UHGV virus genome: UHGV-0293664
Length of the DNA stretch: 64,000 nt
Origin: a virus
Direction: 5' to 3' (one strand)
The notes below the pieces were generated by a model. The model made no database searches and had not been told where the DNA came from. It worked only from the letters and a program-made list of their open reading frames with translations. Positions within the stretch are counted from its first letter, which is position 1; each line of letters opens with the position of its first letter. The position numbers and the translations under genes were made by a program. Shown here in pieces: positions 1 through 27,791 of this stretch.

Positions 1-396
1 GTGTATAAAGATGGGAACATATTTCTTATTAAAACTTACGGTCACTCAGTAACAGCTAATGAGCCAATCGCCCTCGGGCCTACTGGTAACGACGATTTTT
101 TGAAGACGGTTGGGTGGGAGCCAAACAGAGACATAGCCAGAGCCGGGGATAAAATATCTGTCAATGATGAATTGAAAGTGGTAACAGCTCCAGTGCGTAG
201 CGATGGTGTTGGGTCTGCTGTTATAGGTATATCTCCAAGACTTAGAAAACCTATTGCCGCAGGGGACACCATGAAGATAATAACTCAATCTCCGAAGGGT
301 AGGTTTCATATCAGAGATATTTATAAAATTAAGCAAAAAGTCGATGCTATGCAAAAAGGTGATAATATAGTTATCAACTTCTTTGAGGATTTTTAA
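1..396 (+). CDS. Tail-module protein, probably truncated at window edge
   Basis: ORF in frame from position 1; stop TAA 394-396 two nt before next tail gene; no motif recognised. Confidence 0.45.
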   Translation: MYKDGNIFLIKTYGHSVTANEPIALGPTGNDDFLKTVGWEPNRDIARAGDKISVNDELKVVTAPVRSDGVGSAVIGISPRLRKPIAAGDTMKIITQSPKGRFHIRDIYKIKQKVDAMQKGDNIVINFFEDF

Positions 397-397
397 G

Positions 398-949
398 ATG
401 ATCAGAGCGCCATTAGATAATTTATTTCTTGAAAAGCTGGAGCTTGATGGTGTTGAGATCTTAATTGCTGCAAAGCTGGAGCTACCGACAGGAACTGTCA
501 GGGTGTGCTCAGGCACTGGTGTTGTAGTAATTGAGGGGCAACATTTTATAGGGATAGGGGGATCAGCAACATTAACTGCTGTGTCTGAGAAAGATGCCAC
601 CAACTTCGGATCTGTGGTAGCAACATTAAACGGGTTTGATCCTAAGTATGTGGGTGATCTGCTGAAGACAGAGTATTCTGGTTGTCGTGCCACGTTGTAC
701 ATTACCGCTATGGAGAATGGTCTGCCTGTCACAACCAATGGCTTGTTTGACGGTCTTATAACAGATATGGCTATTCAGACAGGAGAGAATAGTGCTTTGT
801 CCATATCCATCTCTTCCATCTTCAACAGCTGGTTAAGAGGTTTTCCTTATCGGTACACTGAGGAAAGCCACAGCTCAAGAAACGATAACGACAGATTTTT
901 TAAATATGTGGATCAGGTGGCGAGCCGCCCGATCATTTGGGAGGTTTAA
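398..949 (+). CDS. Minor tail protein (tail-tip assembly module)
   Basis: ATG 398 just after upstream stop; stop overlaps next start (TAATG 947-951); sits upstream of gpJ-like gene. Confidence 0.55.
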   Translation: MIRAPLDNLFLEKLELDGVEILIAAKLELPTGTVRVCSGTGVVVIEGQHFIGIGGSATLTAVSEKDATNFGSVVATLNGFDPKYVGDLLKTEYSGCRATLYITAMENGLPVTTNGLFDGLITDMAIQTGENSALSISISSIFNSWLRGFPYRYTEESHSSRNDNDRFFKYVDQVASRPIIWEV

Positions 950-1374
950 TGAGCACACATCCTCGTTTAGTGGACTGGCAAGAAAGATTGTGGAAAGTGT
1001 TTGACGAAGAGGCCACCATACCTTTTGAATGGGGATTCCACGATTGTTGCACCTTTGCGGCTAAGTGTGTTGATGCCCAATACGGAACAGATTTTCTTTC
1101 TAACTTCGAAGGAACGTATAAAACAGAGTTGGAAAGCAAGAGATGGTGCATGCTTCATTTCAAAACCACACACCTGCCCACTATTTTTGATTTCTTTATG
1201 ACTCGGCTGGACACTCCTAAACAGGTTCAGCGTGGCGATATTGTTATCTTCAAAGGTCTGAACGGCCTCACAGCTGGTGTGTTCTGGAACAACCAGATTT
1301 GGGCGAAAGGTGATAAAGGGGTCTTTATGTTCGACATGAAAGATTCTATCGTTGTTGATGTCTGGAGGTATTAA
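949..1374 (+). CDS. Tail assembly protein, possibly NlpC/P60-like peptidase (gpK/gpI position)
   Basis: ATG 949; FEWGFHDCCTF Cys motif; stop overlaps start of gpJ-like gene. Confidence 0.45.
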   Translation: MSTHPRLVDWQERLWKVFDEEATIPFEWGFHDCCTFAAKCVDAQYGTDFLSNFEGTYKTELESKRWCMLHFKTTHLPTIFDFFMTRLDTPKQVQRGDIVIFKGLNGLTAGVFWNNQIWAKGDKGVFMFDMKDSIVVDVWRY

Positions 1375-4300
1375 TGCCAATTGCAATGATTGATAACATC
1401 GTTGCTTCTGCAAGATCTTCAAGTTATGACTGGAACGCATCCAAGGCAGCTCTGGCTGACAGCCTGAACACTGTTACCACCAGAACTCTGGATAAGATTT
1501 TTGAGGGCAACAAATCTTACAGAAGTCAGCAAGATAGACAAAAGCTTCTCAGATCTTCTGCTGCACCCTGCTCTGTAGTGTATGGGAAGACACGCACATC
1601 CGGATTGCTTGCGTTTTTGGAGCAGGACAGAGACAGAACCCTCCATTGTGCTATTGTTCTTGCCAATCATCCTCTAGAAGGTATAGAAGACATACTCATC
1701 GACGGTAATCCTATTTCCTCGTATGGAGATCTGGTATCGTGGGAGCTACATAACGACAGAAAAACATCTGATCCTTTCATGGGTACACACTGCCCATCAT
1801 GGTCACCTGACATGATAGGTAGAGGGATCAGTTGGCTACGTGCCAGCTTCAGGTTTGACCCTAACAAGTTTCCTTTTGGGTTGCCAAACGTTACACTCGT
1901 TAAGGTTGGTAAAAAATGCTATGATCCTCGCATCAGTAAAGAGGTGTATACCAATAACGCGGCCTTGGTGATTCTAGACTATTTAAGAACGTACCTTAAA
2001 TGTCCTGACGAAACCATCAACTGGGAGTCCTTCAAGGAGGCTGCTAACATATGCGACGAGGCGGTAAAAAACGCAGACGGAACCAGTGAGCGCCGATACA
2101 CCATTAATGGCGAGTTTGACATGGACGAGGCTCCGGCAAGCATTATGGCAGAAATGCTGAAAGCTTGTGGCGCAGATCTCAGCTATGTAGCTGGTAAGTA
2201 TGGTTTGCTGGTTGGTGCATACTATGGCCCGGCAACAATGACGCTGAGTGAGGATTGTGTCTGTGGTGAGGTTAAGATCTATCCGGAAGCCTCGTTTGAC
2301 AAAAGATCCAACACAATAACTGGCAGATTCACCAGTCCGACCAAAGGGTATTCTGAAACAGATTTTCCATCAGTGTTTGTCCCAGAGTGGATAGAGAAGG
2401 ATGGAGAAAGAAAGATAATCGATATAGACTACCGCTTTGTTACCAGCCCTTATCAAGCTCAGCGTGTTTCTGCAATATTTTTAAGACGTGCTAGAGCTGG
2501 CAGGATTATTGAAGTCACCTGCAATATGCGAGGTTTTAAATTTAAACCTGGCCGTTACGTTACAATGAATCTCCCAAGTATTGGTATAGTGGGCCAAGAA
2601 ATGAGGGTTCTTGAGTGGGAGTTCACCAAAAAGGGCGGTGTCAAGGTAAAACTTCGTCAAGATGCTAAAGAGTGGAATGATGCCACAGGGCAACTTCCGG
2701 ATTCTGGCGATGTAGATATTCCGATATCCCCATCCGGTGTAGCTCAACCGCAAAACTTCAGATACTCCGTCCTCCAAGCTGGGGAAATAACTCACGGTGT
2801 TCTGGCTTGGGACAACGTTGGGACTTACGCTCAAAATATTGTGCAGGTAAGAAAGAACGGAGAGATTGTTTGGACAGCACAGACAGTTGAGCAGTTTGTC
2901 CGAGTAGAAGGCTTGACCAAAGGGTCATACACAGCAACCGTGGTTGCAACATCCTATAAAGGTGGTGTATCTCCAGAAGCGTACTGCGAGTTTAACATTC
3001 AGGCACCTGAAGCTCCGGTTTCTGTAGAGGTTAAGCAGGGATATTTCGCTATCACCTTGATTCCGCATAGTAGGGATTTAGCAAGCGTAAGCACCCAGTA
3101 TGACTTTTGGACATCTGGTATGACAAGGTTGCCAGACACCAGTGATGCTACCGTTACTTCAAAAGCCACCCGTATGGGTGTTGGTTCAACTTGGACGTCT
3201 GAAGGTCTCCAGAACGATAAGGTTTATTATTGGTATATTCGAACCACAAACGCTTTTGGTAGCTCTCAGTTTGTAGAATGCGCTGCACGCTGCTATACCT
3301 CTATTGAGGATTTGATGCCTCAGATAGATGCTGAATTCAAAAAGACAGAAACTTATAAAGAGTTGATGAGCACTTTGGATTCCTCTATTGAAGAGGTTGA
3401 AAATCGTGTCACAGAACTTAACAGGTACATGGATGGTAGGGTAGATGAAGCGTTCCAACAACTTGGGGACAGAATAGGTGCGGTAGTTACAGAAACAACT
3501 CAGAAGTTTGAAGATGTCAATGGTAACATTACAGCGCTGGATAGGAAACTTGTTGCTGCACAGAACAAATTCACCAACGATCTGAACACTGAAAGTGGCA
3601 GACTGGCATCTCTGATCGAGACAACCAATAAAGCAACTACTGATCTTCTGAACAAAAAGACAGAGGCTTTAGATGAGAAATTGGTTGCCGCCAAAGGTGA
3701 GCTGGTAGAGCAGATAGAGGGAGTTGAGAGCGGGTATTTAGCCGGAGATAAAACTCTGGATGGTAAGATCAATACTCAGAGAACAGAACTTGACGCAAGC
3801 ATCTTGAGCACTAACCAGGCAACTGTGGATCTTTTGAACAGGACATCTGAAACTCTGGATCAAAAGATCAGTCAGACAAACGCGACGGTATCTAAAAACT
3901 ATACCACCCTGGATGGCAAGATAACCACCGCAAAAACTGACCTCAACACCTTGATTGCCAATACCAACAAGGCCACCACTGACTTGTTGAATCAGAAAAC
4001 ATCTGCACTGTCAGAGCAGATAACTTCTGCACGTGGGGAGATTTCTACCAACAAGCAGGCGATTGATGCTTTGGATGGAAAACTGACTTCCACAAAAACA
4101 GCGCTGGATGCTACAATTTCCGATACCAACAAAGCCACTGTGGACCTTATCAACGGCACAGCGTCAGCTATTCGTCAAGAACTTGCTGTTGCTAAGCAGG
4201 AGATCATTGATGATGTTGGGGATGTGTCCGAGATCAGGGCTGCAGTAGCTACAACATCTAAGGCTGTAACCGACTTGGAGGGTAAAGTAAATGCTCAGTG

Positions 4301-5213
4301 GGGTACAAAAATACAGGTGGACTCCGCAGGGAATAAATATGTTGCAGGTATCCAGTTGGGGATGGAAGGGTCTGGGGGCCAAGTTCAATCCTACTTCATG
4401 GTTAGCGCAAACAATTTTGCGGTATACAACCCCGGCAATGGAACAGCAACCCTTGCTTTCGCAATCAAGAACAACCAAGCGTTCTTGAAAGACGCTTTTA
4501 TAGAGAATGGCACGATCTCTTCTGCCAAGATCGCACAAGAAATTTCGTCAAACAACTACGATGGCAACGGGTACCATAAATACGGTTGGTATATTAACAA
4601 GAACGGGCACGCCCAATTTATGGATGTGTGGGTGAAAGGCAACATCAACGCCAGTTCTGGTAACTTCACAGGGGCAGTTAACGCCACTAGTGGTACCTTC
4701 CGTGGGGATGTTTATGCCAACAATGGTAGCTTTAGGGGCACCATAGATGCAACCGGAGGTACCTTCCGTGGGCGTGTAGAAGCTTCTGTTATCCGCGCTA
4801 ACCAGTTCGAAGGTGCAATTGTTGCACACAGGACTTACGGAGATTGTGCTCCAGTATATAACTCCCGGCAAAGGGTTTGCCGTTGGAGGTGGAGATATGT
4901 GGACAACGTGCAAGGCCAAGGTAAAAACGTAACATTCTTCTTTAAACTGAACGGTACTCGTGCCAACTCTCAACTAAATGCGTGGATAGCTGGTCACCAA
5001 CTACTTGCTGGCAAGAAGTACGGAAACGATAACGATGGCATGTGTGCAGTTGGGATAACAGGTCTAGGTGAACAAACTATAGACATTATTATCGAGATTT
5101 ACACACCATGGTCAACAGGGAACGTGACAGGCATTACAATATCTTGTCCTACAGTCGTTGTAAGTCGTTCTAACTCAAGTTTCCAAGGTCCTTGGAATGA
5201 GTCTCACGACTAA
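1374..5213 (+). CDS. Central tail fibre / host-specificity protein (lambda gpJ-like) with inserted coiled-coil repeat segment
   Basis: 1279 aa; GYFAITLIPH, YYWYIRTTNAFGSSQFVE and YVAGIQLGMEG segments align to lambda J from memory; periodic TTDLLN/ATVDLLN repeats. Confidence 0.85.
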   Translation: MPIAMIDNIVASARSSSYDWNASKAALADSLNTVTTRTLDKIFEGNKSYRSQQDRQKLLRSSAAPCSVVYGKTRTSGLLAFLEQDRDRTLHCAIVLANHPLEGIEDILIDGNPISSYGDLVSWELHNDRKTSDPFMGTHCPSWSPDMIGRGISWLRASFRFDPNKFPFGLPNVTLVKVGKKCYDPRISKEVYTNNAALVILDYLRTYLKCPDETINWESFKEAANICDEAVKNADGTSERRYTINGEFDMDEAPASIMAEMLKACGADLSYVAGKYGLLVGAYYGPATMTLSEDCVCGEVKIYPEASFDKRSNTITGRFTSPTKGYSETDFPSVFVPEWIEKDGERKIIDIDYRFVTSPYQAQRVSAIFLRRARAGRIIEVTCNMRGFKFKPGRYVTMNLPSIGIVGQEMRVLEWEFTKKGGVKVKLRQDAKEWNDATGQLPDSGDVDIPISPSGVAQPQNFRYSVLQAGEITHGVLAWDNVGTYAQNIVQVRKNGEIVWTAQTVEQFVRVEGLTKGSYTATVVATSYKGGVSPEAYCEFNIQAPEAPVSVEVKQGYFAITLIPHSRDLASVSTQYDFWTSGMTRLPDTSDATVTSKATRMGVGSTWTSEGLQNDKVYYWYIRTTNAFGSSQFVECAARCYTSIEDLMPQIDAEFKKTETYKELMSTLDSSIEEVENRVTELNRYMDGRVDEAFQQLGDRIGAVVTETTQKFEDVNGNITALDRKLVAAQNKFTNDLNTESGRLASLIETTNKATTDLLNKKTEALDEKLVAAKGELVEQIEGVESGYLAGDKTLDGKINTQRTELDASILSTNQATVDLLNRTSETLDQKISQTNATVSKNYTTLDGKITTAKTDLNTLIANTNKATTDLLNQKTSALSEQITSARGEISTNKQAIDALDGKLTSTKTALDATISDTNKATVDLINGTASAIRQELAVAKQEIIDDVGDVSEIRAAVATTSKAVTDLEGKVNAQWGTKIQVDSAGNKYVAGIQLGMEGSGGQVQSYFMVSANNFAVYNPGNGTATLAFAIKNNQAFLKDAFIENGTISSAKIAQEISSNNYDGNGYHKYGWYINKNGHAQFMDVWVKGNINASSGNFTGAVNATSGTFRGDVYANNGSFRGTIDATGGTFRGRVEASVIRANQFEGAIVAHRTYGDCAPVYNSRQRVCRWRWRYVDNVQGQGKNVTFFFKLNGTRANSQLNAWIAGHQLLAGKKYGNDNDGMCAVGITGLGEQTIDIIIEIYTPWSTGNVTGITISCPTVVVSRSNSSFQGPWNESHD

Positions 5214-6819: not shown

Positions 6820-7506
6820 ATGGCAGAGATTAAGTCGGATGTTAACCACATCCACACTCTGCCAGATTTTGTTCAGGGAGGTCTTGACTACCTGCCTGGA
6901 GATTTTCTGGCTGAGAAGGTTAATTTAGTCACATTCTTAACCGTGTACCTTAAAAGGTTGGAGGATGTTGATAAGATGCTGGTAGGTTTGGCTGAAGGAA
7001 GATTGCTTAACAATGCCAGCGGAAGATACCTTGACGAGGTTGGTAATCAACTTGGTATTCTTAGGAATGGACTTTCAGATGCTGATTTTCGTGCCACACT
7101 AATTATTCAGCAGGCCGCAGCATCAAGGGGCGGGACTCGCGAAGATGTCATCTCCACCTTGCGACAATTGTTCGGAAGAGACAATTTCGATACGTGGAAA
7201 GGAGACAACTTCCGGTTTGACATAAATATTAGAAAAACTTGCTTTGACATATTGCAGTCTATCGATCAGATCTTAGATATGCTACCATTGCCTTGTCATT
7301 TGCGTCTTACAGAATCGCAAGGGCAAGCTTTTGGTTTTGAAGGGGACTCTACAGCTCTTGGCTTCGGATCAGTGTGGGAAGAAAACCAATTCGGAGTTGG
7401 TGGGCTGGCTACTTTGCTGTATGTTCCTGACGTAAGACCTGATTGGGACACCACAACCATTTATTGTGAAAGTATTACAGTAAACGCAACTAGACAGGAG
7501 GGTTAA
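6820..7506 (+). CDS. Tail/baseplate structural protein
   Basis: 228 aa; RBS present; stop/start coupled to next gene. Confidence 0.5.
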   Translation: MAEIKSDVNHIHTLPDFVQGGLDYLPGDFLAEKVNLVTFLTVYLKRLEDVDKMLVGLAEGRLLNNASGRYLDEVGNQLGILRNGLSDADFRATLIIQQAAASRGGTREDVISTLRQLFGRDNFDTWKGDNFRFDINIRKTCFDILQSIDQILDMLPLPCHLRLTESQGQAFGFEGDSTALGFGSVWEENQFGVGGLATLLYVPDVRPDWDTTTIYCESITVNATRQEG

Positions 7507-9578
7507 TGGCAACAGCTGTTTTTAAACCTTACCGTGATTACTCTACAATGGCTGCACAGTTTCATTACCGCACAGTTCAGGATACTGCCGTTCCTGGTAG
7601 GGATTATGATCATGTTGAGGGCGATGTAACTATCCCAGTCGGGGCAACCAGTATTGAGATTCCGGTGGAAATTGTTGACAAATTGCCCAACAGATTGCCA
7701 AGAAGCTTCTTTATGGAGTTTTCATCAAAATCTCAAGGGGTGATGATTGGGACACAAAGGGCGAAATGTACAATAGTTTCAGATGAGAATCTTGACAGGA
7801 TATCTTGGGATACTGTCGAGGAGAGAATGTTCCACCCAAGATATTGGGTTACAAATACTCAGCAGACTGAAAGTACCTGTATTGTTGCAGATAACAACTG
7901 TTGTATTAACCGTTTAGTGTCAAGAACATATGGAGGTGTGGCTGGGTGCATTTGGGAAACAGTTGACAAGTATGACCATTTCGGTATTGGGTTTGATGAT
8001 CACTATGAGATGAGAAACACCAAGCTTTGGTTCAGAATGTCAATAACCAACGCCAGCAACTTCTCCACTCCTGAAAAGATGATTATGACTGTAGACCTTG
8101 TTGATGGCACAATCATCTATGTTCCTTTAGCTCAATATGCTGTCAGCATCTCAGAGGATAAGAATGTTGCAGAAATTCATATTGATTTTGAGGACTGCGT
8201 CGGGATGGACCAGAACAACAACATGATGGGTGTTGATCCTCGGCAGGTGAGAAGGATTTTAATACCGCTCATGCCTAAAGACTGGGTAAGTAATAGCACA
8301 GACCCGAGAACGGAAAATGTAGAGTGTGAGTTGCGCCTAGATTTGCTTCAGCCAGACACAGGCTGGAAAATGATGCAACTTAACAATATTCAGGTGAGAG
8401 AGCACGACGTTGGGATCTGCACCGCATATGACGATATGTGGAACGTATCTCCTTTAAGGGTGTTGAACAATATCAAGCGTCTGGGCTATACCGGAACCAT
8501 AAACCATTATGTTGGTATGAGTCATTATTATGACTACACATGGTCAGGAACCCAATGGTCTATAAACAGAACAGGAGCGCTAAACGCTGCAGCTTATAAA
8601 TGGCATGATGATTTTATGTACAATGCCAAACGACATAACTTCGACGTTATGCAATCTGTAAGTTTTGAGCTTTTCAGCGATGCCTGCCCGTTGGAATGGA
8701 CCCAAAGAGACTGGAACGATAACTATGCTAAAACAGGCTATACGCCTTGTAGTTACCTCCTATCTCCAACCATTGAAGAGGGTATGAATTTCCTTACTGC
8801 AGTATTTAAGAATTTTGCATCAGCCGCTATGAGAAACAATCTGCCAGTGATTATGCAGATTGGTGAACCGTGGTGGTGGTTCAATACCGATACTCGTAAG
8901 CCTTGTATTTATGACTACCCTACAAAACAGGCGTTTTATGATGAGACTGGTGAATATGCACTAGACATTGGGACTATTGACGATCCTAAAACTGGCGGTG
9001 TTTATGACAAGTATGTAGCATTTTGTCGTGGTAAGCTTGGCGCTCGTATTGCGGCTATTTCAAAGGCAATAAAGGCACACGCTGCATCAGCTCAGATGAC
9101 AGCTCTGCTGTTTTTCCCAACCATTATGGAAACCGAGCTTACGCAAAAGCTGAACCTTGCTGACCAATATAAAAAAGAAGCAGGTGCTCTTGATTTCTTC
9201 TGCACTGAGTGCTACGATTGGGTGATGCAGGGAGGTATTGAAAAGGCAAAAGAGTCTGTAAACATACCTATCGTTAAGTTAGGTTGGCAACCGTCTGAAA
9301 TACAATACCTTGCAGGGTTCGTTCCTAGCAAAGAGCTTGCTCCGGTATATGGCTACGACCCAACCAGGAATTACCAAGAATTTTTATGGAGATGTATCTG
9401 CGGAAACATGGCAACCATAGAGTATAGATACCCTGAGGTAAAACAGTATGTGTGGGCATACCCGCAAGTAATGTCTGACAGCATCACTGTTACCGCTAGG
9501 GATTCTACCGTGCTTCATATAGGGCAGGTTGCTCTGAAAGGGTATGTAGAAGATGTTGTCCCGCCAGACTTCTCATAA
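7506..9578 (+). CDS. Tail/baseplate structural protein
   Basis: 690 aa; ATGA-type coupling with upstream gene. Confidence 0.5.
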   Translation: MATAVFKPYRDYSTMAAQFHYRTVQDTAVPGRDYDHVEGDVTIPVGATSIEIPVEIVDKLPNRLPRSFFMEFSSKSQGVMIGTQRAKCTIVSDENLDRISWDTVEERMFHPRYWVTNTQQTESTCIVADNNCCINRLVSRTYGGVAGCIWETVDKYDHFGIGFDDHYEMRNTKLWFRMSITNASNFSTPEKMIMTVDLVDGTIIYVPLAQYAVSISEDKNVAEIHIDFEDCVGMDQNNNMMGVDPRQVRRILIPLMPKDWVSNSTDPRTENVECELRLDLLQPDTGWKMMQLNNIQVREHDVGICTAYDDMWNVSPLRVLNNIKRLGYTGTINHYVGMSHYYDYTWSGTQWSINRTGALNAAAYKWHDDFMYNAKRHNFDVMQSVSFELFSDACPLEWTQRDWNDNYAKTGYTPCSYLLSPTIEEGMNFLTAVFKNFASAAMRNNLPVIMQIGEPWWWFNTDTRKPCIYDYPTKQAFYDETGEYALDIGTIDDPKTGGVYDKYVAFCRGKLGARIAAISKAIKAHAASAQMTALLFFPTIMETELTQKLNLADQYKKEAGALDFFCTECYDWVMQGGIEKAKESVNIPIVKLGWQPSEIQYLAGFVPSKELAPVYGYDPTRNYQEFLWRCICGNMATIEYRYPEVKQYVWAYPQVMSDSITVTARDSTVLHIGQVALKGYVEDVVPPDFS

Positions 9579-9590: not shown

Positions 9591-10631
9591 ATGTCAAAAC
9601 CTAGTTTTCCATTAGAGATTTGGGCAGAGGAGGATCAGGTTCTGCCTAACACCCACAGACAGAACAGGCTACGCCCGATTGATGATTTGTGGAGAAAAGG
9701 TTGGGATCTTGGTCAAAAGCCATCCTGTGAAGAACTTAACTATATTTTCAATATGCTCGGGACTTGGGCAAAATACATTGCTGACGAGCAGATCCCCGCT
9801 CAAGAAGGCCGCTATCTGGTACGTGATAATAACTTGAGTGATCTTTTAAACATCCCTGTTGCCCGTAGAAACCTTGGAATTATTACTAAGGAAGAGGCAG
9901 ACGCCAGGTATGTAAAAGTTACAGGTGATACAATGACAGGCCCATTGGGTTTGCAACGTATCAACTTTAAAGCTGCCGAGACAGATAAGGCTTGGATAGA
10001 GACAACTATTGGCCCAGATAAGACAACTCTTGACTTTGGGTTAAGTGATAATATTGGGGCGTTCGATGATGGTGGCACATCTACAGTGGATGCGTTCCGT
10101 TGGAGATTCCAGCCAACTCAGCCGGACATTAATCCAGAGTTCACTTTAATGTACCTGAACGCAATCACGGCTAATCGTGCGTTGTTGAAAGTGGTGGGCA
10201 ATGTTGAAGTTGTTGATAACATGCGGTGTAATAACCTCACCATTAGTAGCACAGCAACATTCACTAACTGCAATGTAGCCAGTCAGTTGACAGCTGGGTC
10301 AGTATATGTCAATGGCGGTGCAAGTTGTGATAGTATGGTTGTAAGAAGCCAGCATTGTGTTGTCGGTAACAGAAATGTGGTGCGCTCTGTGAATGGAGTG
10401 ACGGCTAACGGCAACGGCGATGTAACGATCACCATCCCACAGACAGGTGTACAGGATATCAGAATCGGTGCAAGACTTGTTGATGGCGTTTCTGAATCTC
10501 CAATCCGCAACGGATACGTTGTCACAGGTTGGCATTTTGGTGACAAAAAAGAGATGCGTGGTTCAACTTACTGGGCAGGACCTTTACAAAAACTTGTAAA
10601 TGGTCAATGGATCACTGTTAATTATGCATAG
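9591..10631 (+). CDS. Tail fibre / receptor-binding protein, paralog A
   Basis: 346 aa; N-term MSKPSFPLEIWA and C-term KLVNGQWITVNYA shared with 11646..12689. Confidence 0.65.
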   Translation: MSKPSFPLEIWAEEDQVLPNTHRQNRLRPIDDLWRKGWDLGQKPSCEELNYIFNMLGTWAKYIADEQIPAQEGRYLVRDNNLSDLLNIPVARRNLGIITKEEADARYVKVTGDTMTGPLGLQRINFKAAETDKAWIETTIGPDKTTLDFGLSDNIGAFDDGGTSTVDAFRWRFQPTQPDINPEFTLMYLNAITANRALLKVVGNVEVVDNMRCNNLTISSTATFTNCNVASQLTAGSVYVNGGASCDSMVVRSQHCVVGNRNVVRSVNGVTANGNGDVTITIPQTGVQDIRIGARLVDGVSESPIRNGYVVTGWHFGDKKEMRGSTYWAGPLQKLVNGQWITVNYA

Positions 10632-11645: not shown

Positions 11646-12689
11646 ATGACTAAACCAGTTATCCCTCTTGATATTTGGGCCAATCAGGATGTTGTGCTTG
11701 AAAATACGGGAGAGTTGAATAAATCTCAACCAAAAAAAGAAGAGAGATTGAAAGGTTGGGATATGACACAAAGAATGGCATGTGAAGTTGTTAACTTTGA
11801 ACTTCACATGCTTTCTGCGTGGTTGAAGCATTTAACAGAAGATGTTGTCCCAGGATGGGATAATAGATTCTTAAGGGTCACTAATAACCTAGCAGACGTT
11901 CCAGACAAAGCTGCTGCACGTCAAGTTCTCAATGTATACTCACCTGAAGAAATGGACGATCTATATGTTGACAAGTCTGGAGACATAATGACTCAGACTC
12001 AAACTTTAGGTCTTCAAAGAATCGAGTTTGCATCTGCGTCAACAGACAGTGCGGCAATATACACCACCATAACTCCAGACAAGACGACGATGGATTTCTG
12101 GATTATGGACAACATCGGTGGTGCTGACGGCACAGACCTTGATGATCCTTCTCACCAAATAGACGGGTTCCGTTGGAGATTTCAACCTTCTGGTGGGCAG
12201 CCTGTGTTTTCGGCTATGAAGCTCAATGCTATAACTGCCAACCGTGCAAGACTGGCTATCCAAGGAAATCTTGAATGTAACGATGCAAAAAGTTCCTCTG
12301 CAAATGCCAATGCGGTCACGATACCAAGAGCCACTGTTAACGGACAACAATCCTGCGGAAGCGCTCAAATAGGTGGAAGAGTTGATTGTAACGATGAAAC
12401 CGTTAGGGGCCAATATGCAACCGTTGGTGGAAGAAACGTGGTCCGCAGGGTAAATGGTAACAGCGCAGACGGTAGTGGTAACCTTACTATCCCTATGCCT
12501 AGCAGAGGGGTTGATGATGTAAGGATAGCGAACCGTTTCAAAACCACCTACAGAGAGTCAAGAGTCTACCCTGGACATGTGATGTGCTCTGGTAACTACG
12601 CCTATAAACACCCTTATCAAGGTGATTACTGGACAGGTGCTATCCAAAAACTTGTAAATGGTCAATGGATCACTATATCTTATGCTTAA
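11646..12689 (+). CDS. Tail fibre / receptor-binding protein, paralog B
   Basis: 347 aa; N-term MTKPVIPLDIWA and C-term KLVNGQWITISYA shared with 9591..10631. Confidence 0.65.
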   Translation: MTKPVIPLDIWANQDVVLENTGELNKSQPKKEERLKGWDMTQRMACEVVNFELHMLSAWLKHLTEDVVPGWDNRFLRVTNNLADVPDKAAARQVLNVYSPEEMDDLYVDKSGDIMTQTQTLGLQRIEFASASTDSAAIYTTITPDKTTMDFWIMDNIGGADGTDLDDPSHQIDGFRWRFQPSGGQPVFSAMKLNAITANRARLAIQGNLECNDAKSSSANANAVTIPRATVNGQQSCGSAQIGGRVDCNDETVRGQYATVGGRNVVRRVNGNSADGSGNLTIPMPSRGVDDVRIANRFKTTYRESRVYPGHVMCSGNYAYKHPYQGDYWTGAIQKLVNGQWITISYA

Positions 12690-17700: not shown

Positions 17701-20398
17701 GGGCAATGCCGTTGACCCTTATATCATCATGACTGCACTGAGATCAAACATGGACGGGACATCCATGTCTATGCAAATTCCGGTAACAAACGGGTACAAA
17801 CGTGTTGTGATGATCATTAAGTGCGACTTAATAGGTAAACAAGTTCTTGCAGAAAACGGGACATCCACACATCCTTTTGAGATTGCTCTGCACTATCAGT
17901 TTGCTGACTCGCCTTTTGCAGGTGATAAGAGAATATCTGATACAGATGCACAGCGTTGTAAGAAAGTATTGTTGGGTGCAGGTTGGTGGTGGTATGAGTT
18001 TGATTTAACAGACAAATTCACCGACACGTCTAAAGTTGTAACAGGACTTCGTCTAGACCTTGGCGAGAACATGCACAAAGCTGTTTGTGATGGCACCTAT
18101 GGTGACCCTACAATATACCTAAAATATATTTCTTTTGAGCATCCGGAAGATGTTGTCTACGGTCCAAAACTGAGATTGTTTGGCAGTTGGATTGCAAAAG
18201 ATAGGGTAGGCATGGGTAAGAAGGTGAGAGGGTTCTTGGTTGATGCAGGAACAGAAGACATGCTGGTTAATGCAGTATGGCCTGAATTACCTGGGACTCA
18301 GTGGAACAACTCAGCCAAATCTATAAACTGGTTTAACATCCACAGGGCTATGTGGACCACTAACTGCTACTTGTGGAGAGAGCTTAACGATCAGGCTTTT
18401 GGCTTCAGTGATGGCAGGAGGATGGCGATCATTTGCTGGACAACGCTGCAAAGATGCTATGACCATGACTACGAGATTGGTGGTAGGGCATGGAAAAATA
18501 TCAGGGACAGAATCATAACCAATTTTGCAGACGACAACGGTGGTGGAGCACATAACTTTGGCACAAGCCGACTTATCCATTTGAATGGATCCTCGGCCTA
18601 CAAGAAAGAAGGTTACTCAGGGTCCATGATCGAGTGGGGTCTGGTGAAAGATGCTCGCGTATTGATGGGCCAGCAACTTGCTGCCGCAATAGGCCCAAGC
18701 GCAGTGCAGTCGGTTAAACCAGCGTGGTTCGATATCCCATTGTGGTCACCAGGAACACCGGGAACTGCTGCAATCAACCCTACCACTGGGGATCTAGAAA
18801 TATCCTGGGAGGACTTGAAGCAGGTCGGTGGTTGGGATAAAACGGGGTATCAGGTCCAGTGGTGGAGGGCTGATGGATCTTTAGCCTCTGATGAGTTTGT
18901 TAAGGACAATTTCTACACCATGTCCTCTGCAAAAGCACAGCAATTATTTGGTCAGGCCACTCCGTCAACGATCACCATGTCTATGTGCTGTAAAGACAAC
19001 AGGACTGGAGCTTTGGGGCCAAGGGTTGCTAAGGTTTTCTCAGGTATTAAATGGAATCTCCCTGTTCAAAGTGTTTCATGGAAGCAAATAGGTGATAACA
19101 AGCTGCTGGTTACCCCTGCCTGTCAGTTCAACGCAACTCTTAACGTTGATCCTGCTGTTGCGGCAAACTCAGCTAAAGCTTCTGACTTCTCTGTGTCTAA
19201 CACTGCTATGGCAGATGTGAGGAAGATTGACACACTGAACGCCAGAATTACCTGTAAAAACACTTATGGCACATTCCAAATCATCAACAACTTCACAGAT
19301 GCTGATTCTAAGGTAGTAAGGACAGCAAGCCAGACTCTGAGTTTAGGGACTCTGGCCTATGCGGCCCTGATCACCGAACAGTCGGCAACACTCCAAGGAG
19401 GCGGTGTAGGCAAGTCCATTGCAACACCTGTGTGGAAGCCGAATGAGTGGGTTGTGTTTGATTTGACTGTGGACTTCTCCAGTGATAATAACTGGACATG
19501 GGTAAGGAATTGTTTGTCACAGTTGATGGGCGGTCCAAGCTCCATTAGCGATAGTCACGACTCTACTGACCCGAGCGTGTTCCAGGTGGGTAAAACTCAC
19601 CCAGAGACTGGAGAAACGTTGCCTGACAGGAAGTATGCTTTGGTTTGCATCTCTTACGGGAAGGCAGATGTCACCTTCTCAGGGACACACACTTATAACG
19701 GAACCTACAACTTCTCAAGGAAGTATAGTCTCAAAGCAGGGAACATTGTAGACGAGGTTGGTGTGCTGTATAATCCAGGTAACGGCATAGGGATTGTGGG
19801 TGGTCAACTGCAGATGCAGGAACCTTCTATTACACCTTCCAACGTATCCGGGATTAGAAAGACTTGGGAAAGTAGTAATACCAACATTGCAACAGTGGAT
19901 GCCACCACAGGACTGGTAACATTTAAAGCCACTGGGAATGTCACCATAAAGTTTGTAGTTACAGATGATGCAGGCCGCAAAACGTCTTCAACATCATTCA
20001 CTGTCAAACAGATGGCACCTCAGTGGTTTATTTGGGAAGGAAATCCTCTTGACGGGGCTTACCCTAGACCTGCAGGAACGTCTAATATGAGGGTCTTTAC
20101 CGGTCCGGTCATGAACAATCCGACCACAACCACCAACCCTACATTTTTTGGTGCTTACATACCTGAAATCATTGGCCTACCAAGGAACCAGATACAACTG
20201 CTTTTCGGAGCAGGTGTTGATGGTCTAGCCACCTTTGGGTACAGTGACAACATTGATGCAGCCAGAAGCTCGGGTTGGATTGGATTTAAGTTCCAGTGGA
20301 ACCCTGGTGGTAGAACATTAGGTCTTGCAAGCATAGGTGTTATGCTACCTGGTAACCAGCAATACCATCTCGAAGCTTATACAAACTTCCCTAGTTAA
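14771..20398 (+). CDS. Giant tail fibre / adhesin-like structural protein with Ig-like domain
   Basis: 1875 aa; Trp/Asn/Gly-rich; Big_2-like segment near residue 1700 (TGLVTFKATGNVTIKFVVTDDAGRK). Confidence 0.6.
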   Translation: MLPIPLLKLGRHFLDKRGGIKELAVLSYPIDNSDGTSTTVSYVNSLAILFDDGQLNITGYNRFGECRTGGLDTINYPNEAAWNVDHVWRADRAFVIRTFDNQFFYIGCTAGLIGSDAAGGNDVCVREWTPLPEQIVKGLHLDTHPERLIEVMGGINNTIWVIAEAEGTGILNLYGSGNNTYGSLHVDKNQHATPVKIGETSENPETGPWKNPSINCEVHDNSVIFGGPRGFWIAGYDFLRNNSRNDLVWPPVQITRNDLRGIPADEEWKGFMCGPNGAIIATQRMHRPDDQQLVNVFYGQDVWGDDTWRSLNITYTHEVIMARGYGTSGIFFNNGTKQYRGFSRNLCNDIGAQSANNSPRANFIHYQALATAKYVEQRLPVSWTESVYFQGIHREGFLGTFTVVNGKLWWSGIPRGSFAGSNNLFGGRLNSQGFTEVPENWYKNVPVDSWDVDDIFDVNGVSSVSNIYIGDTVKMKLKPQPEGATFIIDKIELVNAAGTVVTDANYQFSTNWNHGGANEVVVTQYNRNVNRRGLYSVKITYHDKHGTGRTHTTRTLNWNTIVPAYPSNGKWHTVGRNKQFHVNDTVYFGLNGTQPAVEGDTSYMVRLHRMDAGSVTYDVTQEIYDQRRNTYNNLVQTQAVWEFNPNGRGGKMLQVNEQNGTSLTVHKHPDPWPDPGKPHPGARTLKIVSHDVGYFGIRWEATVRYADGTTNNIGITLGGTSEDNSLKIAYTPRGISIDNMDVVRNGYGDVNVKVTLGEHLGGERIIMYAFDHDPRTNGTYANQAWSYLINAPGPNTKEFYYGMKRDVCKKTGTHDWIAICVKDERTAWDEPVNRWFIGIPTRSDKYVAEYIVCMGGTNLNMCWNEDANKYSDYDYMRDYSCNQWFNQSTGYPPRQARVNPAIFTDTQVFLTKQANKVQTFKNKYDPNKWFYNCYGAFFWGPGELPGGGSCLNEATYASDYIMGQVKKYKIIPGPETLGNAVDPYIIMTALRSNMDGTSMSMQIPVTNGYKRVVMIIKCDLIGKQVLAENGTSTHPFEIALHYQFADSPFAGDKRISDTDAQRCKKVLLGAGWWWYEFDLTDKFTDTSKVVTGLRLDLGENMHKAVCDGTYGDPTIYLKYISFEHPEDVVYGPKLRLFGSWIAKDRVGMGKKVRGFLVDAGTEDMLVNAVWPELPGTQWNNSAKSINWFNIHRAMWTTNCYLWRELNDQAFGFSDGRRMAIICWTTLQRCYDHDYEIGGRAWKNIRDRIITNFADDNGGGAHNFGTSRLIHLNGSSAYKKEGYSGSMIEWGLVKDARVLMGQQLAAAIGPSAVQSVKPAWFDIPLWSPGTPGTAAINPTTGDLEISWEDLKQVGGWDKTGYQVQWWRADGSLASDEFVKDNFYTMSSAKAQQLFGQATPSTITMSMCCKDNRTGALGPRVAKVFSGIKWNLPVQSVSWKQIGDNKLLVTPACQFNATLNVDPAVAANSAKASDFSVSNTAMADVRKIDTLNARITCKNTYGTFQIINNFTDADSKVVRTASQTLSLGTLAYAALITEQSATLQGGGVGKSIATPVWKPNEWVVFDLTVDFSSDNNWTWVRNCLSQLMGGPSSISDSHDSTDPSVFQVGKTHPETGETLPDRKYALVCISYGKADVTFSGTHTYNGTYNFSRKYSLKAGNIVDEVGVLYNPGNGIGIVGGQLQMQEPSITPSNVSGIRKTWESSNTNIATVDATTGLVTFKATGNVTIKFVVTDDAGRKTSSTSFTVKQMAPQWFIWEGNPLDGAYPRPAGTSNMRVFTGPVMNNPTTTTNPTFFGAYIPEIIGLPRNQIQLLFGAGVDGLATFGYSDNIDAARSSGWIGFKFQWNPGGRTLGLASIGVMLPGNQQYHLEAYTNFPS

Positions 20399-20410
20399 CA
20401 AGAGGAAAAT

Positions 20411-20440
20411 AAAAAGGGGCCGTTTGGCCCCTTTCTTTTT
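20411..20440. terminator. Bidirectional rho-independent terminator between convergent operons
   Basis: A-run, GGGGCC-GTTT-GGCCCC hairpin, T-run. Confidence 0.8.
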
Positions 20441-20444
20441 ATAA

Positions 20445-20645
20445 TTAGTAATATTCCCAACACGACCCATCTTCAGACGGCTGGACACGCTTACCTTCAT
20501 GATCGACATAGGTGTAACCACAGCCTTCACAGATAACAGGTGCCGCATAACCTTCCTTCCACTGCTTCTCCGTGATCAATCCTTTCAGATCTCCGCAGTC
20601 ACGACCAAACAACTCTTCAGAACAGTCTTTACAAAAATCAGCCAT
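20445..20645 (-). CDS. Small zinc-ribbon-like protein
   Basis: 66 aa; CxxC...C...CxxC pattern. Confidence 0.45.
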   Translation of the reverse strand: MADFCKDCSEELFGRDCGDLKGLITEKQWKEGYAAPVICEGCGYTYVDHEGKRVQPSEDGSCWEYY

Positions 20646-20714
20646 CTCTATCAGTCTCCATATTTAACCAATCTGTATTACATATTGCCGAAGAAACAGT
20701 ATTTCATTTCATCA

Positions 20715-20933
20715 TTACAGATCTCCAACAACTTCCCAAATACCCCAGTGAGCATCCATATCCTTGATAAAGTATCTTTCTCCACGGTTTGTCCACACAC
20801 CTATCCCAACTTTACCATCTATCCCATTGTATACATCTGCCTCATACTCTTTGCCCGGTGTAAAGTGTACACCCATCATAAGGGCTGTTATTCCGTTAGG
20901 ATTTTTAAATTTAACAAATTTTACTTTGCTCAT
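20715..20933 (-). CDS. Small hypothetical protein
   Basis: 72 aa; shares IKDxDxxWG-type motif with small proteins near the polymerase gene. Confidence 0.45.
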   Translation of the reverse strand: MSKVKFVKFKNPNGITALMMGVHFTPGKEYEADVYNGIDGKVGIGVWTNRGERYFIKDMDAHWGIWEVVGDL

Positions 20934-20934
20934 A

Positions 20935-21264
20935 TTACTTAATCCTTGCAGTTACAGTAGCGCTATACCCCATGTAGTTATGAGACATAAAGAATGTAAG
21001 CCCTTTAAGTTCAGGATTCTTTCTAAGAAATCGTTTCAATTTTCGAATGCAATTAACACCATGATCATAGTTTGAGAAATTAAATTTAATACCCTGCTCT
21101 ATCATAGTGCACACTTCTTCATGGGTATGCCATTGTCTATCGTGGTCACAAAACCAGTAACCAATACTTTCTTTTTCTTGGATATGCAACCCCCAAAATA
21201 CTTTATGCATTGGATATTTTGGTTTTCTACCATGATAATGTAGTTTAATATTCACATGTGCCAT
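20935..21264 (-). CDS. Hypothetical protein
   Basis: 109 aa; His/Cys-rich; 1-nt gap to downstream gene. Confidence 0.45.
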   Translation of the reverse strand: MAHVNIKLHYHGRKPKYPMHKVFWGLHIQEKESIGYWFCDHDRQWHTHEEVCTMIEQGIKFNFSNYDHGVNCIRKLKRFLRKNPELKGLTFFMSHNYMGYSATVTARIK

Positions 21265-21434
21265 TTTTTTGTTACTCCGTTCTGTATCTGTGATAATGAG
21301 AATAGCAAACTGGAGTGTGTGCTGTCAACAACATTTTTTAAGCGTTTTGGGGAAGTTTTTTGAAAGGTGGGTGTAATCACAAGAGGGGGTAGAGTTATTG
21401 AAGGCACAGGCCTCGTTTGAGGCCTTAAAACAGA

Positions 21435-21815
21435 TTATGATGCTTTGACGTAGCGCTCTGACAAAGCTGGGAAGCCAAAAGCAGCACCTACACTGCCGTA
21501 CGCTATCCACCATTGAAGTTCATCGTGACACCATTTTCCGATCAGAAAGGTGCTGGGGTAGCGGGTCAATATTTTGGCATAAGCTTTAGGGTCTGCATCC
21601 TCTGGGATAATGATGCTTGGAACATCTTTGTTATGACCACAGCAGCAGTTTAGAGTTTTCAATCCTGCCGCCCATAGACTCATGATAGGCTTAGCCATGC
21701 ACTTATCAAGGCACACACGTTTTTTGCCGTCTCGAAGTTTTTTAGGCACATCAACGATAACATTTGGATGCTTGGCACCTTTCACTTTCCAATTATAGGA
21801 TTTACACTTGCACAT
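21435..21815 (-). CDS. Cys-rich hypothetical protein
   Basis: 126 aa; CxC...C...CCCGH cluster; GGAG RBS 9 nt upstream. Confidence 0.45.
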   Translation of the reverse strand: MCKCKSYNWKVKGAKHPNVIVDVPKKLRDGKKRVCLDKCMAKPIMSLWAAGLKTLNCCCGHNKDVPSIIIPEDADPKAYAKILTRYPSTFLIGKWCHDELQWWIAYGSVGAAFGFPALSERYVKAS

Positions 21816-21941
21816 TTAATCAGTCTCCGTCTAGAAAGCTCTGTAACTAAAATGATGCACAAAACTACCTAGCAATGCAATCTTATGCCTGCGGTGAGTT
21901 AAGTGCGCTACAGGGACTCCTGTTGCGTTTTAAGGCATATT

Positions 21942-22112
21942 TTACTTAAAGTCTTTATCACCTGCCACGATTGCATGAATCCACTCATTGTGATGCTTAA
22001 TAGCGGTGAGATGTAACATGATGTAGTGATCGTCATTGCCAAACATGGTATGATAGGCTTTGGCAGCATTTTGATATAACTTCCACATCAGGTAATAATA
22101 TCTTCGCCTCAT
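21942..22112 (-). CDS. Small hypothetical protein
   Basis: 56 aa ORF below track cutoff; ATG with GGAG about 10 nt upstream. Confidence 0.3.
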   Translation of the reverse strand: MRRRYYYLMWKLYQNAAKAYHTMFGNDDHYIMLHLTAIKHHNEWIHAIVAGDKDFK

Positions 22113-22117
22113 GGCTC

Positions 22118-22582
22118 TTACTCCGGTTCAGGATCTGGGTAATCTTCAATAATAAAGGGCCATCCGTTCCGCTTAGCCTCAGACTTATACTCGATCTCCT
22201 TCATTGCAAACTCTAACTGATTCTTAGCCGGAATACATGCCGGAGAATCATCAATCCAGATATCTGGGTAGATATCAAACTGCGCCAGATAGGCTGCCTT
22301 CTGAACACCCCCAGTATAAAACACACCAACATCAAGCTCCTTGCGCCAATACTCAATGTCTACATTGTCTTGAGTAATGAATCGGGAAGTCACAAGGTAG
22401 ACTGTCCACCCCTCCTTCTTCAGATCCCTGATCAGGCGGGAGAAGATGAAAGGGCTCGCATTAAACGTTCCATCAAAGTCAATGGCAATGATGTGCGTGC
22501 CGTGGCGAGTCTCATATGGATTGCTCGTGGTAAGATTGCTGTAGTTAAAAGGAACTTCTTCCCCGCAGTAGCTGTAGTCCAT
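22118..22582 (-). CDS. HAD-family phosphatase (5'-nucleotidase-like)
   Basis: IIAIDFDGTF motif I (DxDxT); start ATG 22582 preferred over in-frame GTG 22588. Confidence 0.6.
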   Translation of the reverse strand: MDYSYCGEEVPFNYSNLTTSNPYETRHGTHIIAIDFDGTFNASPFIFSRLIRDLKKEGWTVYLVTSRFITQDNVDIEYWRKELDVGVFYTGGVQKAAYLAQFDIYPDIWIDDSPACIPAKNQLEFAMKEIEYKSEAKRNGWPFIIEDYPDPEPE

Positions 22583-22584
22583 AT

Positions 22585-22860
22585 TCACACCTTCTCGTTG
22601 ATAAATTTACGGGCGGTTTGGTGAGTTGTTTCTGCTGTCTTCAGAATGATGTTAATTTTATTGTCAAGATCATTCATCTCTGCAGTTAATTCAGGAATCT
22701 CTCCGGCGTGCATAGTGAAATCATACATAGACATGCCCAGAATCTCATTGATGCGGCGGTTGCATTCTGCAGCACGCTGGTTCATTTTCCAAGCTAACAC
22801 CAAAGCCTCCTGCGTAGCCTCTAGTGCAAAATCTAATACGTCGGCCTCTTCTTTCGTCAT
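22585..22860 (-). CDS. Hypothetical helical protein
   Basis: 91 aa; ATG start. Confidence 0.45.
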   Translation of the reverse strand: MTKEEADVLDFALEATQEALVLAWKMNQRAAECNRRINEILGMSMYDFTMHAGEIPELTAEMNDLDNKINIILKTAETTHQTARKFINEKV

Positions 22861-22917
22861 GTCAGTCTCTCCTGTTGTATTGTTGGTAGGTGTATGAATA
22901 CCTTATAACTCACCTTT

Positions 22918-23484
22918 TTATTCAAACTGCAATAGTAAATCCACCACCGCGCTAGGTCTGTCAACAAATTCCCCTGGTCCACATGCCCATAAAGGGTATC
23001 CGTCTACATACCGCCAAATCCAACCTGCAGTGTGGAGTTCGAGCAGGGCAGTACCGTCCTTACTGTCAACCACTCTTTCCCACAGTGTCGGGCAGCGAAG
23101 CTTGAGGATCGGATCCCCTCCCTTATACCCGTCCATGTAGATACCCATTGCAAAGTTCAGCATCATCTTTTTGTGCACCGATCTCTTACTGAGAGTGCTC
23201 ATCACTTCCTCTTTGTGAATGTTTGTAAGCTTCTCCTTGGCTATCCGCAGATCGTTGCAACCATTGTTCAGCAAATCTTCTAGACACCTGATCCGAAGGT
23301 CGTGAATGTCTTTGTCGTGTACCGTTGGCACAGGGTCGTAGCGGTATAGCACTGTTGATACAAGGTTGCTCGGGTGTGGGTCTGACAGCAACCCATAACC
23401 CCAATACTCTTCTGTATCTGAAAGGACAAGACACCCAATGTCTCTGTCAAGCTTTCCTGTGTTGTAAGCCACATTGACCGCCAT
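22918..23484 (-). CDS. Hypothetical protein
   Basis: 188 aa; ATG start. Confidence 0.45.
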   Translation of the reverse strand: MAVNVAYNTGKLDRDIGCLVLSDTEEYWGYGLLSDPHPSNLVSTVLYRYDPVPTVHDKDIHDLRIRCLEDLLNNGCNDLRIAKEKLTNIHKEEVMSTLSKRSVHKKMMLNFAMGIYMDGYKGGDPILKLRCPTLWERVVDSKDGTALLELHTAGWIWRYVDGYPLWACGPGEFVDRPSAVVDLLLQFE

Positions 23485-23486
23485 GA

Positions 23487-23732
23487 CTATAGCTCCACTA
23501 GCAAAGTGCTTTCAAAGTGCCGTTCATGCAGACCGTTGTAAGGGACCACCTCCACAACGCCATCACGAACATATGGGGTCATCATAGTGGTATAATCTCC
23601 AAACGGGTTGGTATTGTCACTAACCACAACCACCTTCTGCCCTTCCTTGGCAGAGTGCCAAATAGATCTGCACTTCATCAGGTGTTCGAGAGCTCCAGGT
23701 AAAATTTTGTTACGTTCTTTACGGGTCTTCAT
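23487..23732 (-). CDS. Hypothetical protein
   Basis: 81 aa; 2-nt gap to downstream gene. Confidence 0.45.
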   Translation of the reverse strand: MKTRKERNKILPGALEHLMKCRSIWHSAKEGQKVVVVSDNTNPFGDYTTMMTPYVRDGVVEVVPYNGLHERHFESTLLVEL

Positions 23733-24178
23733 AACAGGTATAGCTCCTTATGAAAGTGATCTTTTAATTTCTCACTGAGAAACTTCTTGATACCTTCCTC
23801 TAAAGTGTTTTCGATGTAGTCCAGCTTAACTGCTTCGATAGACATATCATAGATCGCCAGCTCTAAGCTGTCAAGTCCCATCATAGCATGAACCATAAGA
23901 TTTTCATCTTCAGATACATTCAGGGGACTTCCTATAACATCTGGAGGCAGAATAGTTTCCCAATTATTCTGGGTGGTAGTTCTCCCCCCCTCTGCTTTAC
24001 GGCGCAGTTCGAATGTGTTCTTAGTATAGAACACTTCATAAGAAACGATACGACTGTCGCTCTCATAATAAACGAAGTTCAGGTAGGAGCCTAGCCGCAG
24101 TCGGCAAACTTCCACCCCAAACCATTGTTTCTTATAAGAATTCAGGCTAATGCTGTCGCATTCACGTTTGCTCAACAC
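23729..24178 (-). CDS. Hypothetical protein
   Basis: 149 aa; GTG start with AGGAGA RBS. Confidence 0.45.
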   Translation of the reverse strand: MLSKRECDSISLNSYKKQWFGVEVCRLRLGSYLNFVYYESDSRIVSYEVFYTKNTFELRRKAEGGRTTTQNNWETILPPDVIGSPLNVSEDENLMVHAMMGLDSLELAIYDMSIEAVKLDYIENTLEEGIKKFLSEKLKDHFHKELYLL

Positions 24179-24194
24179 GGCTCTCTCCTTTTTG

Positions 24195-24428: not shown

Positions 24429-24429
24429 A

Positions 24430-25219: not shown

Positions 25220-25234
25220 AAATAATCTCCTCCT

Positions 25235-26716: not shown

Positions 26717-26728
26717 TGGCCCCTGTTA

Positions 26729-27718: not shown

Positions 27719-27749
27719 GAGTTGTCTCTTGTGCTCTGTGGGTGGAGAA

Positions 27750-27778
27750 ATCTTACCAAGGGCCTGGGAAGATGTCAA
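27750..27778 (-). promoter_or_regulatory. sigma70-like promoter for leftward operon
   Basis: On minus strand TTGACA, 17-nt spacer, TAAGAT. Confidence 0.5.
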
Positions 27779-27791
27779 CCTCAAAAACGTG

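Follow-up and report, generated by a model that had tools for sequence, protein, structure and literature searches.

The 64,000-nucleotide (nt) stretch of viral DNA analyzed here (UHGV virus genome UHGV-0293664, hereafter the window) belongs to a Vequintavirus, an rV5-like Escherichia coli myovirus, as megablast of its J-like gene aligned the full length of that gene with about 70 genomes at 95-96.5% DNA identity. The gene codes for a hub-and-fibre protein of 1279 residues whose orthologues are rV5 gp37, bas54_0031 and bas59_0030, and which, between its last J-type Ig/FN3-like domain and its Phage_Tail_Tip domain (Table 1), contains a predicted helical shaft made of four diverged copies of a 51- to 62-residue unit. 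We consider it likely, with a probability of roughly three in four, that this shaft is a parallel, trimeric and nearly straight coiled coil that spaces the distal head of the fibre from the hub, its number of units setting the reach of the head.

A preliminary description of the window had placed at positions 3300-4300, corresponding to residues 643-976, a coiled-coil segment of about 330 residues with regular repeats, inserted between the conserved regions of a gpJ-like protein. The segment is real and its location was right, and so are its repeats; however, it spans about 305 residues and the repeats are irregularly spaced, since the four copies of the motif N(K/Q)AT(T/V)DL(L/I)N are 62, 51 and 54 residues apart. 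The 45-residue cores of the units are 36-49% identical, and the best internal local alignment of the shaft scores 212, against 44.7 +/- 7.3 in 200 shuffles (maximum 70). No DNA tandem repeat was reported by Tandem Repeats Finder in nt 3000-4600, and a repeat search gave remnants of 15-27 nt only, so that the duplications are old.

The composition and periodicity of the shaft are those of an unusual coiled coil. Residues 655-956 (302 residues) are entirely devoid of Pro, Trp, Cys and His, and Thr, Asn, Asp and Lys abound in the shaft (Thr 14%, Leu 10.6%, Ala 9.6%). Its hydrophobicity has a single dominant period of 3.62-3.63 residues with a power of 20.9-24.9, the lower value of which was reached by none of 500 shuffles. 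A canonical heptad coil was rejected, given a negligible power of 0.31 at its period of 3.5 (against 20.9 at 3.62) and a tiling that mixes heptads and hendecads: by dynamic programming, residues 647-954 (308 residues) are covered without a skip by 11 heptads and 21 hendecads, or 85 turns of 3.62 residues each, with a score of 207.7 compared with 110.5 +/- 9.1 and a maximum of 132 in shuffles (z about 10). AlphaFold2, run on the monomer with an alignment of 27 sequences (predicted template-modelling score, pTM, 0.25), predicted helices at residues 644-788 and 794-948 with a predicted local distance difference test score (pLDDT) of about 70-80, and strands from residue 956. The sole predicted break, at residues 789-793, falls inside the sequence GVESGYLAGDK of a Gly-rich stretch. 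Weak matches of the shaft included the trimeric needle coiled coil of P22 gp26 and helical Pfam families, the latter far under their cut-offs. The lack of Pro, the period, the tiling and the predicted helix all bear out the earlier suggestion of a typical fibrous coiled coil, and the coiled-coil propensity on which that suggestion hinged is present, although in a heptad/hendecad register rather than at 3.5 residues per turn.

Hendecad stalks such as those of Thermotoga Omp-alpha and the trimeric autotransporter adhesins are likewise long coiled coils with a period above 3.5 and polar core residues; no homology relates them to the shaft past coiled-coil composition. In databases the protein goes by the names 'tail fiber', 'tip attachment protein J' and 'central tail fiber J', as well as 'lateral tail fiber protein with fibronectin type III domain' and 'outer membrane protein alpha precursor'. 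The last of these is an annotation artefact of coiled-coil composition.

Place in the J family and origin of the shaft

Several comparisons assign the protein to the J/pb3 family. Its match to PHROG 31, 'central tail fiber J', has E=9.5e-164, and a profile built from diverse homologues recovers lambda J (E=2.8e-131) together with the baseplate hub pb3 of T5/DT57C (E=1.6e-14). The same hub is matched by phmmer at residues 244-472 (E=2.3e-4) and is found with the N-terminal 500 residues alone. The Pfam families PF24489 (E=1.4e-30) and PF09327 (132 bits against a 22-bit cut-off) are both above their cut-offs, and PF24421, at 24.7 bits, is just under its cut-off of 29 bits. Finally, the top matches of the predicted model in Foldseek are structures of the lambda gpJ central fibre (8XCJ, E=6e-15). 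Pfam, PHROG 31, phmmer and the family profile thus confirm the initial designation as gpJ-like and, as far as sequence can tell, the protein is a true hub-and-fibre member of the J/pb3 family.

The position of the shaft is best appreciated by comparison with phage lambda. In lambda gpJ (8IYK, 8XCG, 8XCJ), a hub, two FN3/Ig-like domains, a short helical bundle and the PF09327 beta-prism follow one another in the same order, but only 24 residues separate the last FN3 domain from the tip domain, compared with 304 in the J-like protein, and the C-terminal heads of the two proteins are unlike. Searched against the PDB with phmmer, residues 497-678 of the J-like protein align with lambda J 666-844 and residues 957-1116 with lambda J 844-991; about 280 extra residues are found at lambda J position ~844.

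To place this difference within the family, the linker was taken as the stretch that separates the last FN3-like domain from the tip domain, and was compared in 74 sequences consisting of 50%-identity representatives and reference proteins. Linker lengths are 24 residues in lambda J, then 52, 78, 88 (Seuratvirus), 110, 146-224, 263-312 and 378-593 residues, with 304 in the J-like protein. Many homologues besides lambda J are without a segment of such length, in agreement with the preliminary description, which implied that the segment would be missing from some J homologues. Pro-poor linkers range from 21 to 593 residues and mostly contain 0-1 Pro; linkers of more than 770 residues are Pro-rich and therefore contain other domains. 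In 26 of the 31 Pro-poor linkers of at least 75 residues, the strongest hydrophobic period lies between 3.4 and 3.75. These observations point to a helical shaft of variable length at the FN3/tip junction as a trait of the J family, in which the version described here is mid-range.

Outside the genus, the closest relative is the J protein of Seuratvirus, a siphovirus of the Queuovirinae (e.g., vB_Eco_SLUR76), with 54% identity over residues 48-758 and 51% over residues 869-1124. Its coil differs in having 88 residues, a period of 3.51 and zero N.ATxDLLN motifs, and it aligns twice to the shaft, once to the N-terminal part and once to the C-terminal part. Because of this double alignment and of the 24/88/304-residue series of linkers, the shaft is best explained as the expansion of a pre-existing coil. 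The earlier view of an inserted segment hence gives way to that of a short family coil (24 residues in lambda, 88 in Seuratvirus) apparently expanded by internal duplication, and not of a foreign insertion. The unit duplicated in this short coil, which links the last FN3-like domain to the beta-prism, would have been 44-62 residues long.

Allelic variation within Vequintavirus

An exactly identical protein is present in public databases along with more than 100 others that are 98-99% identical, and the BASEL phages carry the gene at 99% identity. As a homologue search with the full-length protein returned only entries of 1279 residues with 98-100% identity, the diversity of J homologues was drawn from 50%-identity representatives and from tblastn against phages. 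The coil alone, used as a tblastn query, retrieved 115 records, all of Vequintavirus type; those listed or opened are genomes of 88-144 kb in or resembling the genus. By coil identity, these records divide into three classes: 58 are at 90% or above, 14 lie near 65-71% and 43 near 40%. Among the matches to the J-like gene are 18 'Campylobacter phage' records (MG0656xx). The two that were opened are UNVERIFIED, classified as Vequintavirus and devoid of annotation, one of them with an apparent frameshift in the J-like gene; the 'Campylobacter' host label of these records looks unreliable.

Four alleles can be distinguished by the number of motif copies: two in O157 typing phage 14 (linker of 199 residues, protein of 1174), three in the C12/Murica/LL12 type (224 and 1199 residues), four in the UHGV-0293664/rV5 type (304 and 1279 residues) and six in the ECP32 type (406 and 1381 residues). 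The hydrophobic period is 3.63-3.64 in all of them. The allele of typing phage 14 equals the rV5-type allele minus exactly 105 residues, with a junction between repeats 2 and 4, a deletion behind which an assembly artefact may lie as the record is a partial genome. Compared with the C12 allele, residues 1-600 and 1001-1150 are 98-100% identical, against 8-64% for the coil; at the DNA level, blastn aligns nt 1-1989 (94.5%) and 2785-3840 (88%) of the gene, with nothing between. In the C12/Murica allele, found in 43 records, a deletion of 18 residues (787-804) also takes out most of the Gly-rich stretch.

Within an allele, by contrast with this replacement between alleles, the coil hardly varies. 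It differs from that of phage MaxBurger by 33 nucleotides and by no amino acid, and its sequence is for this reason regarded as constrained, unlike that of a loose linker. The C-terminal 139 residues diverge from those of same-allele phages by about 9% in amino acids and 12-15% in nucleotides, compared with 0-0.9% in amino acids elsewhere. This C-terminal head is the probable receptor-binding end of the protein; its weak Foldseek matches are to beta-sandwiches of the CBM35 and GOLD types, in a low-confidence part of the model. Overall, the alignments depict the shaft as a constrained, exchangeable and copy-number-variable cassette, and the distal head as the part that drifts fastest.

Table 1. 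Features of the J-like gene and of the genes preceding it in the window. Positions are those of the window; aa, amino acid residues of the J-like protein.
Feature	Position (nt)	Strand	Residues (aa)	Basis or remark
Dit-like protein (cut by window start)	1-396	+		PHROG 1302 'distal tail protein'
Tail protein	383-949	+		PHROG 2048
DUF6950 protein	937-1374	+		Pfam DUF6950
J-like hub-and-fibre protein	1374-5213	+	1-1279	Open reading frame list, translation
N-terminal hub-type region	1515-2843	+	~48-490	Seuratvirus J and pb3 matches
Two J-type Ig/FN3-like domains	2850-3329	+	493-545 (Ig_J), 547-652 (Ig_J_second)	Pfam PF24421, PF24489
Predicted alpha-helical coiled-coil shaft	3303-4235	+	~644-954	No Pro, periodicity, tiling, AlphaFold2
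Allelic cassette (no blastn alignment with C12/Murica)	3363-4157	+		blastn
Repeat unit 1 core	3567-3701	+	732-776	NKATTDLLN at aa 752
Gly-rich stretch GVESGYLAGDKTLDG	3720-3764	+	783-797	AlphaFold2 secondary structure, Gly positions
Repeat unit 2 core	3753-3887	+	794-838	NQATVDLLN at aa 814
Repeat unit 3 core	3906-4040	+	845-889	NKATTDLLN at aa 865
Repeat unit 4 core	4068-4202	+	899-943	NKATVDLIN at aa 919
Phage_Tail_Tip (PF09327) beta domain of fibre	4242-4664	+	957-1097	Pfam E=1.2e-38
C-terminal head	4794-5210	+	1141-1279	Fastest-evolving part

A tail-tip-type gene module in a contractile phage

The Dit-like, tail protein, DUF6950 and J-like genes are collinear with the Seuratvirus genes placed after the tape measure gene, and are 32%, 40%, 44% and 54% identical to them, respectively. 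The large fibre gene just upstream of the window start (bas59_0026) shares 36% identity with the side tail fibre of Seuratvirus. Moreover, the record of rV5 notes gp37-gp40 as similar to proteins of PY54, which is a siphovirus. Gene order and identities indicate that the J-like gene is part of a tail-tip module of siphovirus type lodged within a myovirus baseplate cluster. The settings of the two modules differ: in Seuratvirus, which has a non-contractile tail, the module comes directly after the tape measure gene, whereas in annotated genomes related to that of the window about ten baseplate and fibre genes separate the two. The cluster of these related genomes is also annotated with a tube initiator, hub, central spike and wedge genes of its own.

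In lambda, J makes up the indispensable tip of a non-contractile tail, a part that does not suit the J-like protein, which is encoded by a contractile phage with its own hub and spike genes and whose orthologue bas54_0031 tolerates disruption. In a transposon-sequencing study, both bas54_0028 (Dit-like) and bas54_0031 (J-like) reportedly tolerate transposon insertion, and neither is needed to infect E. coli K-12 or to produce infective virions (preprint 10.1101/2025.11.20.689424). Given the phage's own hub and spike and the tolerance of bas54_0031 to disruption, the protein is therefore placed in the family by its sequence, and the role of the family cannot be transferred to it. In phage phi92, the 50-kb region that holds the tape measure, baseplate and fibre genes contains the wedge gene, and none of the four genes of the module was found in it; the 2026 cryo-electron microscopy (cryo-EM) paper on phi92 mentions no J-like gene either. 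The proposal of the preliminary description that the coil would extend the tail tip into a long central fibre is consequently doubtful, in view of the phage's own hub and spike, the phi92 tail region devoid of the gene and the disruptable bas54_0031. The protein is more probably an accessory fibre than a central tip.

As to the virion itself, mass spectrometry detected gp37 in rV5 particles, and occasional thin fibres of about 70 nm were observed on this phage (PMC3606486). The remark on a coiled coil made in the same paper could not be used for gp37, as it concerns a different protein, gp41 (PMC3606486). For two Vequintavirus phages, another study made out, by low-resolution cryo-EM, only three fibres near the baseplate (PMC12143355).

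Proposed mechanism, alternatives and significance

In the mechanism that we favor, the shaft, about 305 residues long, would be a coiled coil of three parallel strands, the trimer being expected from homology with J, which is trimeric in solved structures, and the period of 3.63, obtained from heptads and hendecads, would yield a nearly straight bundle. Its job would be mechanical, namely to keep the distal beta-prism and the lectin-like head apart from the hub and FN3 domains, by at most about 46 nm (305 x 0.15 nm). Gain or loss of units would alter this reach, which could amount to about 30, 34, 46 or 61 nm across the 2-, 3-, 4- and 6-unit alleles. On the contractile-tailed virion, the module as a whole would provide an accessory fibre for adsorption, and not an essential tail tip.

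Several considerations weigh against this mechanism. The AlphaFold2 model, being that of a monomer with a pTM of 0.25, says nothing on the number, orientation or continuity of the strands. The break at residues 789-793 splits the helix into near-equal halves of 145 and 155 residues, so that the shaft may instead be a fold-back bundle of half the length. The three fibres seen by cryo-EM in Vequintavirus phages may or may not include the J-like protein, and the TC5 member of the RBPseg classification, discussed below, is a presumed counterpart of it (PMC12143355). Finally, the link between coil length and adsorption or host range, which the preliminary description had also raised, is a conjecture put forward as a proposal only.

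The most prosaic alternative is that the repeats and the periodicity are an accident of composition in a disordered or low-complexity linker with no defined structure. The bias of the composition, notably in Thr and Leu, and the helical Pfam matches that all remain far under their cut-offs would agree with it. Nonetheless, shuffles that keep this very composition never attained the observed periodicity, tiling or repeat scores reported above, AlphaFold2 predicts a helix at a pLDDT of 70-80, and the 33 nucleotide changes between phages are accompanied by no amino acid change; on account of these shuffle controls and of the synonymous-only divergence, this explanation can be set aside as having a negligible probability. 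A more interesting possibility stems from the F-type pyocins, whose central fibres (F2, PDB 25VF; F7, PMC12874032) are J-family proteins in which a long three-stranded helical shaft runs from FN3 to a homologous beta-prism. The coil of F7, of 163 residues, reportedly turns into a beta-prism when it comes into contact with a cell, and the preprint that describes this switch predicts the same for 21 of 24 siphophage central fibres (PMC12874032). The shaft of the J-like protein could by analogy be a metastable spring that turns from coil into beta-prism when the distal end binds a cell, thereby shortening the fibre and releasing energy. It is suitably located, as the coil ends at residue ~954, directly N-terminal to the homologous beta-prism 'seed' of the tip domain that starts at residue 957; the J-like protein matches the F2-pyocin fibre across this junction (E=2e-16), where the sequence ATTSKAVTDLEGKVNAQWGTKIQ aligns to it; and purifying selection on the coil is strong among phages of one allele. 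We nevertheless find such a switch improbable. The fold-switch pattern SxSxxMxxLxS of the pyocin shaft, searched as a regular expression written from the text of PMC12874032, is not enriched in the shaft, with 3 matches against 2.85 expected and 550 of 1000 shuffles reaching that count, nor is it enriched in the other three alleles. The 'small' positions of the F7 motif are 68% Ala (PMC12874032), which contrasts with a coil rich in Thr, Asn, Asp and Lys and containing 14% Thr and 9.6% Ala. In addition, the AlphaFold2 monomer gave helix only, penetration in a contractile phage is powered by the sheath, and the gene is dispensable on K-12.

The pyocins also suggest a role as a docking rail, since their shaft binds side fibres: three side-fibre trimers attach to the F2/F7 shaft at a Gly-induced kink (PMC13455828, PMC12874032). 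The shaft described here would then mainly be a platform for other fibre proteins, with which its alleles would co-vary. It does possess one Gly-rich break, at residues 783-797, and bas59_0026, upstream of the module, resembles the Seuratvirus side tail fibre; the strong retention of surface residues within an allele and the sharp replacement of the cassette would also fit a partner-binding surface. On the other hand, the common C12/Murica allele has lost most of the break, and the binding partner is hypothetical. We hold this role to be unlikely as the main one, and it is in any event compatible with a spacer shaft.

Beyond the spacer shaft, which remains the reading that we prefer, a broader scenario can be drawn, in which a siphovirus tail-tip assembly comprising a Dit-like ring, a hub partner, DUF6950, a J trimer and possibly an Stf-like fibre would have been taken over by a contractile phage as a dispensable adsorption organelle. 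Shaft alleles of 2, 3, 4 and 6 units, about 30-61 nm long, would be swapped as cassettes and so tune the reach of the head through surface glycans. This scenario is tentative, and we would count it as a speculation rather than as an expectation.

Part of this architecture has been encountered before. In the RBPseg study, which deals with predicted structures, classes TC5 and TC3/TC4/TC9 contain Vequintavirinae/Tempevirinae fibres that resemble central fibres at the N-terminus, have 'large coiled-coil domains' and end in a C-terminal beta-helix, an architecture that fits the J-like protein; the BASEL phages that carry the gene at 99% identity are from the collection analyzed in that study (PMC12143355). 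The coiled-coil-rich, J-like architecture of the Vequintavirus fibre is thus already known, and it is ordinary in the J family. Repeat units, the 3.63 periodicity and copy-number alleles are not reported in the passages of that study consulted (PMC12143355), nor, in the literature to which we had access, did we see descriptions of a register of 3.63 built from heptads and hendecads, of the four-unit structure, of an allele series of 2, 3, 4 and 6 units or of the cassette boundaries. The register, the repeat units, the allele series and the cassette boundaries are modest additions.

Other features of the window deserve mention. Positions 7506-9578 code for a 690-residue protein with Calx-beta, an N-terminal region of the N4 gp65 'non-contractile tail sheath' type and TIM-barrel domains (PF23844, PF23845), which matches a fibre tied in the literature to the recognition of the ECA/NGR glycan in Vequintavirus and N4. 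On either side of a tail-fibre assembly gene (Caudo_TAP), open reading frames of 346 and 347 residues, at 9591-10631 and 11646-12689, are annotated in related genomes as paralogous short tail fibres. Farther along, GC skew and AT skew are both negative over about 8 kb (20000-28000), which points to a group of genes read from the opposite strand.

The presence of a siphovirus-type tail-tip module in a myovirus is a side result that could be of use. Natural alleles of 2, 3, 4 and 6 shaft units with near-identical flanks constitute a ready series in which fibre reach could be addressed in therapeutic rV5-like phages.

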